From NCBI RefSeq assembly GCF_057098645.1, contig NZ_CM169472.1: a DNA stretch of 64,000 bases. One strand, written 5' to 3'. Every line of letters begins with the position of its first letter. Positions within the stretch are counted from its first letter, which is position 1. This document shows, piece after piece, positions 54,501 to 57,500 of the stretch. The position numbers are program-made.

Positions 54501-57500
54501 GCTCAGTCCCGGTAACGTGACGATTAACTGTTTCTATATTAATGATTTTGAATTTTTCAGGGGAAAGATAATGCACGACTCACTAACTATTGCGTTGCTC
54601 CAGGCGCGAGAAGCGGCGATGAGTTATTTTCGCCCAATCGTTAAACGGCATAATTTGACTGAGCAACAGTGGCGCATCGTGCGTATTCTGGCGGAAAGCC
54701 CATCAATGGATTTTCACGATCTGGCGTATCGCGCCTGCATTTTGCGCCCAAGCCTGACCGGGATCCTCACGCGGATGGAACGCGACGGTTTAGTGTTGCG
54801 ATTAAAGCCGATCAATGATCAGCGGAAGCTCTATATCTCGCTAACCAAAGAGGGGCAGGCGCTGTATAACCGCGCCCAGACACAGATTGAAGAAGCCTAT
54901 CGGCAGATTGAAGCTCAGTTTACTGCCGAGAAAATGCAACAGTTAACCCATCTGTTAGAGGAATTTATTGCTCTGGGCAATTCCCGACAAGAAGACATCC
55001 CGGGCGATAATGAATAACTTTTTAGTATCTGATAACCAGCGCCTGGTTTTTCCATGGATGGCGGGTTACACCTTTTCATAAAGTTTTTGCTTTCCAGGCC
55101 GAAAATCTTGCATCGGTCCACAGGAAAGAGAAACCATGTTAAAACGTATCAAGATCGTGACCAGCTTACTGCTGGTTTTGGCCGTTTTTGGCCTTTTACA
55201 ACTGACATCAGGCGGTCTGTTCTTTAATGCCTTAAAGAATGACAAAGAAAATTTCACTGTTTTACAAACCATTCGCCAGCAGCAATCCACGCTGAATGGC
55301 AGCTGGGTCGCGTTGTTGCAGACGCGTAACACCCTCAACCGCGCGGGTATCCGCTACATGATGGATCAGAATAATATTGGTAGCGGTTCAACCGTTGCTG
55401 AGCTGATGCAGAGTGCCAGTATTTCGCTGAAACAGGCGGAAAAAAACTGGGCGGATTACGAAGCGTTGCCGCGTGACCCGCGTCAGAGCACCGCCGCAGC
55501 GGCAGAGATCAAACGTAATTACGATATTTATCACAATGCGCTGGCGGAGCTGATCCAACTGTTAGGTGCAGGCAAAATCAACGAGTTCTTTGATCAGCCA
55601 ACCCAGGGATATCAGGACGGTTTCGAGAAGCAGTATGTGGCTTACATGGAGCAAAACGATCGGCTCTATGATATCGCCGTCAGCGATAACAATGCCTCCT
55701 ACAGCCAGGCGATGTGGATTCTGGTGGGCGTGATGATCGTCGTACTGGCGGTCATCTTCGCCGTCTGGTTCGGTATTAAAGCCTCGCTGGTAGCGCCAAT
55801 GAATCGTCTGATTGACAGCATTCGTCATATTGCAGGCGGCGATCTGGTGAAACCAATTGAGGTGGATGGCTCTAATGAGATGGGGCAACTGGCAGAGAGT
55901 TTGCGCCATATGCAGGGAGAGCTGATGCGTACCGTCGGTGATGTGCGCAACGGGGCCAATGCCATTTATAGCGGTGCCAGCGAAATCGCCACCGGCAATA
56001 ACGATCTCTCTTCGCGCACCGAGCAACAGGCCGCTTCGCTGGAAGAGACGGCAGCCAGCATGGAGCAACTGACCGCAACGGTGAAACAGAACGCCGAGAA
56101 TGCGCGCCAGGCCAGCCACCTGGCGTTAAGTGCTTCTGAAACGGCGCAACGCGGCGGCAAAGTGGTAGATAACGTGGTGCAGACTATGCGTGATATCTCC
56201 ACCAGTTCGCAGAAAATCGCCGATATTATCAGCGTAATTGACGGCATTGCCTTCCAGACCAATATTCTGGCTTTGAACGCGGCGGTTGAAGCAGCGCGTG
56301 CGGGTGAGCAAGGACGTGGTTTTGCGGTGGTTGCGGGAGAAGTGCGTAATCTGGCCCAGCGTAGCGCTCAGGCGGCTCGTGAAATTAAAAGCCTGATTGA
56401 AGACTCGGTGGGGAAAGTGGATGTTGGCTCTACGCTGGTCGAAAGCGCCGGGGAAACAATGGCGGAGATTGTCAGTGCCGTGACCCGCGTGACGGACATT
56501 ATGGGCGAAATAGCTTCTGCTTCTGATGAGCAGAGCCGTGGTATCGATCAGGTTGGCTTAGCGGTTGCTGAGATGGACCGGGTAACTCAACAGAACGCCG
56601 CGCTGGTGGAAGAATCTGCCGCCGCCGCCGCCGCGCTGGAAGAGCAGGCCAGTCGCCTGACCGAAGCTGTGGCAGTGTTCCGGATTCAGCAACAGCAGCA
56701 ACAGCAGCGTGAAACATCGGCTGTGGTAAAAACCGTGACGCCAGCTGCGCTGCGTAAAATGGCCGTGGCAGATAGCGGGGAGAACTGGGAAACGTTTTAA
56801 CGCAATGACGCCGGATGAGTATTTCATCCGGCGTTTTTATTATTAAACCAGGAACAGTGAAATCGCCGGGATATATGTCACCAGCATTAGCATTAATAGT
56901 AGAGCCGCCAGTAGAGGCAGGGATTGTTTAAAGAAATTTCCCACCGAAACTTGCGTGATGTTACATACCAGCAGCATCACGGTACCTACCGGTGGCGTGA
57001 ATGCGCCAATCGACAGGTTGAAGATCATGATGATGCCAAAATGCACCGGATCGATGCCAAAGTGTTCGACCACCGGTTTTAATAGTGGTACCAGGATCAG
57101 CAAAATGGCGTTTCCTTCCAGAAACATCCCCAGCGTCAGCAGCAATATGTTGATAATTAACAGGAACATATATTTATTTTCGGTCAGCGAAGTCACAAAA
57201 TTCGCCACTGCGACACCAGCATGTTCCATTGAGAAAATCCATCCCAACGCGGCGCTGGCCATGATTACCAGCATCACCGATGCGGTTGCGCGTGCCGTTT
57301 CGCCCAATGCTTTGACGACATGAGAAATCCGCATTTCACGATAGATAAAAAAGCCAATCGCCAGCACGATTAGCACCGCTGCTGCACCTGCTTCTGTTGG
57401 GGTGAAAATGTTAGCGCGAATACCACCCACCACAGCAAAAATGAGGAACAGCGCAGGCCAGGCCTGCCCCAGCGAGAACACCACCTCTTTGCCCGTAGGC

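Follow-up and report, generated by a model that had tools for sequence, protein, structure and literature searches.

In the tsr gene analysed here, a short in-frame tandem repeat with the unit CAGCAACAG lies at the base of the tether that joins the serine chemoreceptor to its C-terminal pentapeptide, and the copy number of this repeat differs by whole 9-bp units among E. coli strains. The DNA examined, hereafter the window, is a stretch of 64,000 nucleotides from contig NZ_CM169472.1. The window allele, with seven consecutive Gln codons, is the species norm and K-12 is the unusual strain. We assign a probability of about 0.8 to an overall explanation in which the repeat varies by replication slippage, the allele in the window is the common one and has the ancestral length, and the effect on the receptor is at most subtle. 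The sequences themselves show the repeat, its variation among strains, the direction of change and its recurrence, whereas the slippage mechanism and the magnitude of any functional effect are inferred.

A 9-bp repeat in the tsr coding sequence

The tsr gene, which encodes the serine chemoreceptor (methyl-accepting chemotaxis protein I), occupies positions 55136 to 56800 on the plus strand of the window and specifies 554 aa plus a stop codon. By every test applied, namely the open reading frame, Pfam, identity to the K-12 protein and RefSeq annotation, the product is Tsr. Its domains follow in the order TarH, HAMP and MCPsignal, all scoring above the curated Pfam cut-offs (PF02203 at residues 1-176, E 9e-55; PF00672 at residues 217-263; PF00015 at residues 327-484, E 3e-62). 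The gene is named tsr in all 5,382 matching RefSeq genomes, and hpaR lies upstream of it in the window as in other E. coli. Translation gives a C-terminus of ...SGENWETF. The NWETF pentapeptide (56783 to 56797, plus strand) closes a predicted unstructured linker, as it does in pentapeptide-bearing chemoreceptors, and its role in CheR/CheB binding is taken from the literature (PMC7390727 and PMC10561060). Downstream of the gene, at 56807 to 56835 on the plus strand, a consensus match identified a candidate terminator-like hairpin with a 13-pair stem followed by a T-run, TTTATTATTA.

The first-pass annotation had placed seven consecutive Gln codons at 56687 to 56707 of the 554-aa Tsr, and the in-frame sequence reads exactly so: codons 518-524 are CAG CAA CAG CAG CAA CAG CAG. 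Such a run is expected by chance with a frequency of 9e-6 from the composition of the protein (43 Gln in 554 aa) and appeared in 0 of 200,000 shuffles of the window Tsr. It is also the longest single-residue run among the open reading frames of at least 100 aa in the window. The tract had been described as a run of CAG/CAA triplets; this part of the description failed. Tandem Repeats Finder reported a perfect 9-bp tandem repeat of CAGCAACAG, present in 2.4 copies at 56687 to 56708 on the plus strand (score 44, 100% matches), whereas a period of three matched at 78% only. The slipping unit is thus 9 bp, and alleles of 3, 5, 6 or 8 Gln, as single-codon steps would give, are absent from the genomes surveyed below.

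Because the repeat is perfect and head-to-tail, with a unit length that is a multiple of three, it has the form of a VNTR, and it acts as an ordinary in-frame coding VNTR in a disordered linker. Two other classes of locus were considered and rejected. A triplet (CAG) expansion or simple poly-Gln microsatellite is contradicted by the 9-bp CAG/CAA pattern and by the lack of single-codon steps among the 3-, 5-, 6- and 8-Gln queries in 5,382 genomes. A phase-variable contingency locus is contradicted by the position of a 9-bp unit inside the coding sequence, with all four length classes remaining in frame and ending in NWETF.

The C-terminal tether runs from the last helix of the cytoplasmic bundle to the pentapeptide and comprises I517 to E549 (33 aa; 56684 to 56782, plus strand), as delimited by the literature (PMC10561060), PDB coverage and an AF2 model. 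A published count anchors the tether at R516 and starts it with I517, which makes it 30 residues long in K-12 Tsr and 34 in Tar (PMC10561060). As I517 is the start of the tether, the Gln run (residues 518-524) begins one residue into it, and the proposal that the run lies in the tether leading to NWETF therefore stood, with the run at the tether start. The alleles with 4, 7, 10 and 13 Gln have tethers of 30, 33, 36 and 39 residues, respectively. Among PDB entries, the chain sequences matching Tsr stop at residue 516 in 8c5v and at residue 520 in 1qu7. The AF2 model of the Tsr monomer was built from an 81-sequence alignment and was of moderate quality (mean pLDDT 66, pTM 0.30), and we used it for the trend in C-terminal confidence only. 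The pLDDT fell from 75 (residues 501-510) to 64, 48 and then 33, and was below 50 from residue 528 onward. Since the model draws the last helix to residue 528, with the Gln run as helix while pLDDT falls from 64 to 48, added Gln residues might lengthen the helix instead of the flexible chain.

Tsr of K-12 MG1655 (b4355, NP_418775.1) is 551 aa, the length given in the first-pass annotation, and 547 of the 554 window residues are identical to it (99%). The sole gap in the alignment consists of three Gln in the run, exactly where a difference of three codons had been suspected; K-12 has 4 Gln versus 7 Gln in the window, and its DNA lacks exactly one 9-bp unit. The remaining differences, from K-12 to the window, are the four substitutions E92Q, H178Y, P536L (window residue 539) and E545G (window residue 548).

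Length classes and their recurrence in E. coli

We surveyed 5,426 complete E. coli genomes, 5,382 of which contain the 3' end of tsr. Alleles were assigned to length classes with anchored queries that contained 52 bases upstream, the run and 20 bases downstream (E <= 1e-18), for which 80% coverage was reached by the matching length class only. These queries were used in place of queries with 40-base flanks on both sides, which gave ambiguous counts when BLAST bridged the 9-base gap or joined two pieces. Seven codons (2.4 units) were found in 4,096 genomes (76%), 4 Gln (1.4 units) in 1,211 genomes (22.5%), 10 Gln (3.4 units) in about 71 genomes (1.3%; 74 matches including the three 13-Gln genomes) and 13 Gln (4.4 units) in 3 genomes (0.06%). 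Together these classes make up 5,381 of the 5,382 genomes in which the region is present. Among complete genomes, laboratory and clinical lineages are over-represented, such that these values are not population frequencies. The seven-codon class also includes about 40 genomes with a divergent allele that lacks the repeat (90-95% identity band) and an uncounted number of Gln-to-His point variants, such as QQQQQHQ in SMS-3-5. The first-pass annotation had recommended a survey of this kind, and its reading would have fallen if K-12 and other strains shared the seven-Gln run. The outcome is split: K-12 lacks the run but most other strains have it, the seven-codon form being the majority and the K-12-like form the minority.

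Off-register queries with 3, 5, 6 and 8 Gln identified no allele of these lengths in the 5,382 genomes. As each of them matched only a neighbouring class with a 3-base gap, variation among the lengths queried occurs in 9-bp steps only. The sequences of 20 alleles were checked directly, and their copy numbers differ by whole units. The 4-Gln allele is present in K-12, BL21-type and B2 strains, and the three 13-Gln strains share one protein (WP_000919582.1).

To follow the distribution of lengths over tsr haplotypes, 19 further E. coli alleles were compared with the window allele. Four local haplotypes, distinguishable by SNPs within 19-35 bp of the run, carry 10 Gln. One is that of HS and KSC64, 4 nt from a 7-Gln O103:H2 allele; the second is that of 94-3024, whose nearest relative is the 7-Gln allele of strain 500111; the third is that of ET350, nearest to 7-Gln O157:H7 TR01; and the fourth is that of LF82. 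Likewise, 4 Gln occurs on three haplotypes, represented by K-12/BLR(DE3), L73 and BEN2908. A single tight clade, with members 8-19 nt apart, contains BEN2908 with 4 Gln, LF82 with 10 Gln and the three 13-Gln strains. Since 4- and 10-Gln alleles are present on several tsr haplotypes, the simplest account of the pattern is that replication slippage by the 9-bp unit has recurred. Given the single-gene tree and the sampling, the number of slippage events is a rough minimum.

In the mechanism that we propose, an ancestral segment of the same length, the imperfectly periodic QQEQQRQ, would have become a perfect repeat in the E. coli lineage. The perfect repeat would then have been prone to replication slippage by 9 bp, and slippage would have generated tethers of 30 residues (4 Gln, as in K-12), 33 residues (7 Gln, as in the window and most E. 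coli), 36 residues (10 Gln) and 39 residues (13 Gln).

The patchy spread of 4- and 10-Gln alleles could instead reflect few slippage events followed by homologous recombination of the tsr 3' end between lineages. E. coli recombines, and two forms of the DNA immediately beyond tsr exist, one with lgoT and one with a TRAP transporter; they diverge right after the stop codon, which marks a recombination junction. Because this junction lies so close, recombination may add to the allele pattern, and some of the sharing could be due to recombination and not to new slippage. However, SNPs located 19 bp upstream of the run and 14-35 bp downstream distinguish the 10-Gln alleles, each of which resembles a local 7-Gln haplotype, and at least three separate slippage events (7 to 4, 7 to 10 and 10 to 13) are needed regardless. 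We consider recombination unlikely as the main source of the pattern and favour recurrent slippage.

Tether length and the reach of CheR and CheB

The first-pass annotation had suggested that tether length affects the access of CheR and CheB to the receptor. This is plausible, and experiments with Tar predict a small effect. Tether length sets the site along Tar at which CheR is concentrated, and in a series of Tar receptors with tethers of 22, 29, 34 and 46 residues the peak of tethered CheR shifted by 0.128 +/- 0.048 nm per residue and adaptation behaviour changed (PMC10561060). By this slope, which may not transfer from Tar to Tsr, we infer that one 9-bp unit would shift the CheR peak of Tsr by ~0.4 nm, roughly a third of the distance of about 1.05 nm between neighbouring methylation sites. 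With each unit the tether gains three uncharged residues at its base, and the region swept by tethered CheR/CheB should move by a few tenths of 1 nm. A charge pattern has been reported for such linkers (bioRxiv 10.1101/2024.03.07.583918), and since Gln is uncharged the pattern in the linker is unchanged. Most likely the length polymorphism would be neutral, or close to it, and would affect adaptation kinetics subtly if at all.

A stronger proposal is that the natural series of Tsr tethers (30, 33, 36 and 39 residues), made repeatedly by 9-bp slippage, is used by selection as a tuning knob, with copy number adjusting tether length, the reach of CheR/CheB along the methylation helices and the kinetics of adaptation to the niche. 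Changes in copy number do recur on several haplotypes, 4 Gln has a share of 22.5% and is present in K-12, BL21-type and B2 strains alike, and tether length is tightly conserved among related species (32-34 residues in 73 of 80), suggesting that length matters; alteration of the Tar tether also changes adaptation behaviour (PMC10561060). Against selection, the predicted shift is only ~0.4 nm per unit, few genomes have 10 or 13 Gln (1.3% and 0.06%), in a collection that is itself biased, and slippage alone would be expected to vary a short perfect repeat without any selection. We regard selected tuning as quite improbable and prefer the nearly neutral reading. If tuning were nevertheless true, K-12 and B2 type strains with short tethers and HS and LF82 with long ones would differ heritably in the speed and precision of serine adaptation, and the K-12 reference receptor that underlies quantitative models of chemotaxis would be atypical for the species.

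The practical import is modest, in that this is otherwise an ordinary in-frame repeat polymorphism and the window has the common allele. Nearly all quantitative work on Tsr has been done with the K-12 protein. Most E. coli have a tether three residues longer than that of K-12, whose length marks the lower end of the range in 80 related species. The natural series of 4, 7, 10 and 13 Gln also provides ready-made alleles with which the tether-length model could be tested in Tsr. These alleles are already in RefSeq under many WP_ accessions. A limited literature search, which is weak evidence on this point, found no description of a Gln-run or VNTR polymorphism in tsr, no listing of it as a typing locus and no allele phenotype.

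Ancestral length and comparison with known systems

The direction of change was examined with Tsr orthologues from 80 species of Enterobacteriaceae, one genome per species. With one outlier these are 551-557 aa long, and 47 of the 80 are 554 aa. Between the VF[RH] motif and the pentapeptide there are 33 residues in 47 of the 80 species (range 30-36, with one outlier of 48). The typical segment at the position of the run is QQEQQ[R/K]AR[E/D], and no Gln run longer than three was found among these 80 orthologues. The nearest outgroups were the representatives of two other Escherichia species (L003 and L006), which have QQTQQRQHE and QQAQQRQHE in proteins of 554 aa, together with divergent E. coli alleles; the retrieved set includes neither E. 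albertii nor E. fergusonii, nor a standard E. coli representative. In E. coli 24A16CRGN010 and 600055 the segment reads CAG CAA GAG CAG CAA CGC CAG CGC GAA (QQEQQRQRE), also in a protein of 554 aa. A neighbour-joining tree of tsr, built after masking the run, placed the alleles of these two strains basal to the other E. coli alleles; it is a tree of a single recombining gene from sampling that favours rare alleles. The 7-Gln allele aligns with the outgroup and unrepeated alleles without gaps, with Arg-Glu kept after the run, and differs from the unrepeated allele by GAG to CAG and CGC to CAG. The gapless alignment to both the orthologues and the unrepeated basal alleles argues that the window allele has the ancestral length. 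By these sequence comparisons the seven-codon, 554-aa form is ancestral in length, and the 4 Gln of K-12 is a derived contraction by one unit. The SMS-3-5 allele, whose sixth codon is CAT, could either be intermediate or have arisen later by point mutation.

The first-pass annotation had drawn the opposite conclusion, that the window allele is a derived expansion by three triplet codons from a K-12-like ancestor of 551 aa. The difference between 4 Gln in K-12 and 7 Gln in the window is what suggested this, and expansion does occur at the locus, as seen in the 10- and 13-Gln alleles. However, most E. coli genomes have the seven-codon form (4,096 of 5,382, or 76%), which also shows the modal length of the 80 orthologues, a polarity that contradicts derivation from a shorter ancestor. 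Moreover, the 7-Gln allele is gapless against the basal QQEQQRQRE and shares the Arg-Glu that follows the run, and the unit of change is 9 bp, with no single-codon steps found by the 3-, 5-, 6- and 8-Gln queries. We consider the expansion very improbable and retain the reading in which K-12 has lost one unit. Finally, although some technologies can miscall short repeats, sequencing or assembly error in a low-complexity tract is a negligible explanation for length differences that are discrete in-frame multiples of 9 bp, are common to hundreds to thousands of independent complete genomes, and are concordant on repeat sequencing of one strain (10 Gln in each of four HS assemblies).

The Tsr proteins of other Enterobacteriaceae (Salmonella, Citrobacter, Enterobacter and others) resemble that of the window in their modal length of 554 aa, modal tether of 33 residues and Gln-rich tether start. 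They differ from it in having no Gln run longer than three and no perfect 9-bp repeat, and the homopolymeric run and its variation in length were seen in E. coli only, not in the other Escherichia species sampled. K-12 Tsr shares with the window Tsr the locus adjoining hpaR, the domains and NWETF, but has a tether of 30 residues with 4 Gln instead of 33 residues with 7 Gln, and K-12 has lgoT next to tsr on the downstream side where the window has a TRAP transporter.

In the engineered Tar series (PMC10561060), as in the natural Tsr alleles, the number of residues from the receptor body to NWETF changes, which sets the position of CheR along the methylation helices. The Tar receptors are laboratory constructs with changes of 5-12 residues towards the pentapeptide end, whereas the Tsr alleles are natural and change by three residues at a time on the side of the tether next to the helix. 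Earlier linker truncations by Li and Hazelbauer (2006), cited in PMC10561060, reportedly altered the number of residues between body and NWETF as well.

MLVA typing of enteric bacteria makes use of in-frame coding tandem repeats that vary by slippage. The tsr repeat is similar to these loci in being perfect, in having a unit that is a multiple of three, in differing among strains by whole units and in the recurrence of its lengths. It departs from them in its very low copy number (1.4-4.4 units) and in its slow variation at the level of clades.

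Variation within the tsr coding sequence

The glutamine run near the 3′ end of tsr, which comprises seven Gln codons in the window (56687-56707), has a variant form in strain SMS-3-5. In this allele (locus L094) the run reads CAG CAA CAG CAG CAA CAT CAG, encoding QQQQQHQ, such that CAT at the sixth codon breaks the otherwise perfect repeat. Because CAT is a single step both from CGT (Arg, the residue carried by the divergent unrepeated alleles) and from CAG (Gln), the SMS-3-5 allele could be an evolutionary intermediate, or the CAT codon could have arisen by a later point mutation.

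A second homopolymeric stretch lies within tsr at window positions 56618-56634, where 5.7 copies of GCC encode six consecutive alanines (Ala6) between the methylation sites E493 and E502 of Tsr. In strain 500111 (locus L099, tsr at 241-1872) an in-frame deletion of 33 bp was found at the Ala6 region. This deletion removes 11 residues, including E493, and leaves a Tsr protein of 543 aa. The deletion appears to be flanked by short direct repeats (AAL-VEE and AAL-EEQ).

Within the collection of 5,426 complete E. coli genomes, three of the places matching the tsr 3′ end were on records classed as plasmid rather than chromosomal, and one genome contained this end in two copies. These cases could reflect misassigned replicons or a real duplication.

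Two forms of the DNA 3′ of tsr

Among the E. coli strains compared, the DNA 3′ of tsr (window 56801-58114 and onward) occurs in two alternative forms that diverge right after the tsr stop codon; in the window this region includes a minus-strand gene (56843-58114). A TRAP transporter operon, whose DctM large permease matches Pfam PF06808, is present in the window, in its best matches (O145:H28, 99.9% over 6 kb), in LF82, BEN2908 and L73, and in the strains with 13 Gln codons. In its place, lgoT-lgoR was found in K-12, O157:H7 TR01, HS, Nissle and SMS-3-5. At least 80% of window positions 54000-60000 was covered in 863 of the 5,426 genomes.

Other tandem repeats in the window

A tandem repeat at 48500-48614 consists of about two copies of a 52-bp unit with sequence of the type CCGGATGCG...CTTATCCGGCC, and it resembles clustered intergenic palindromes of the REP/BIME type. 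Two in-frame tandem repeats (26471-26640 and 26968-27040) were also identified inside the gene for a 722-aa pentapeptide-repeat protein (26359-28527, minus strand; Pfam PF00805, PF13599 and PF13576). One, a 24/48-bp repeat of about seven copies near the C-terminus, encodes QAN[ND]ST[DV][KQ], and the other, a 9-bp repeat of about eight copies, encodes a Pro/Glu/Thr-rich stretch. Both are likely to vary in length, and both are much stronger than the tsr repeat.
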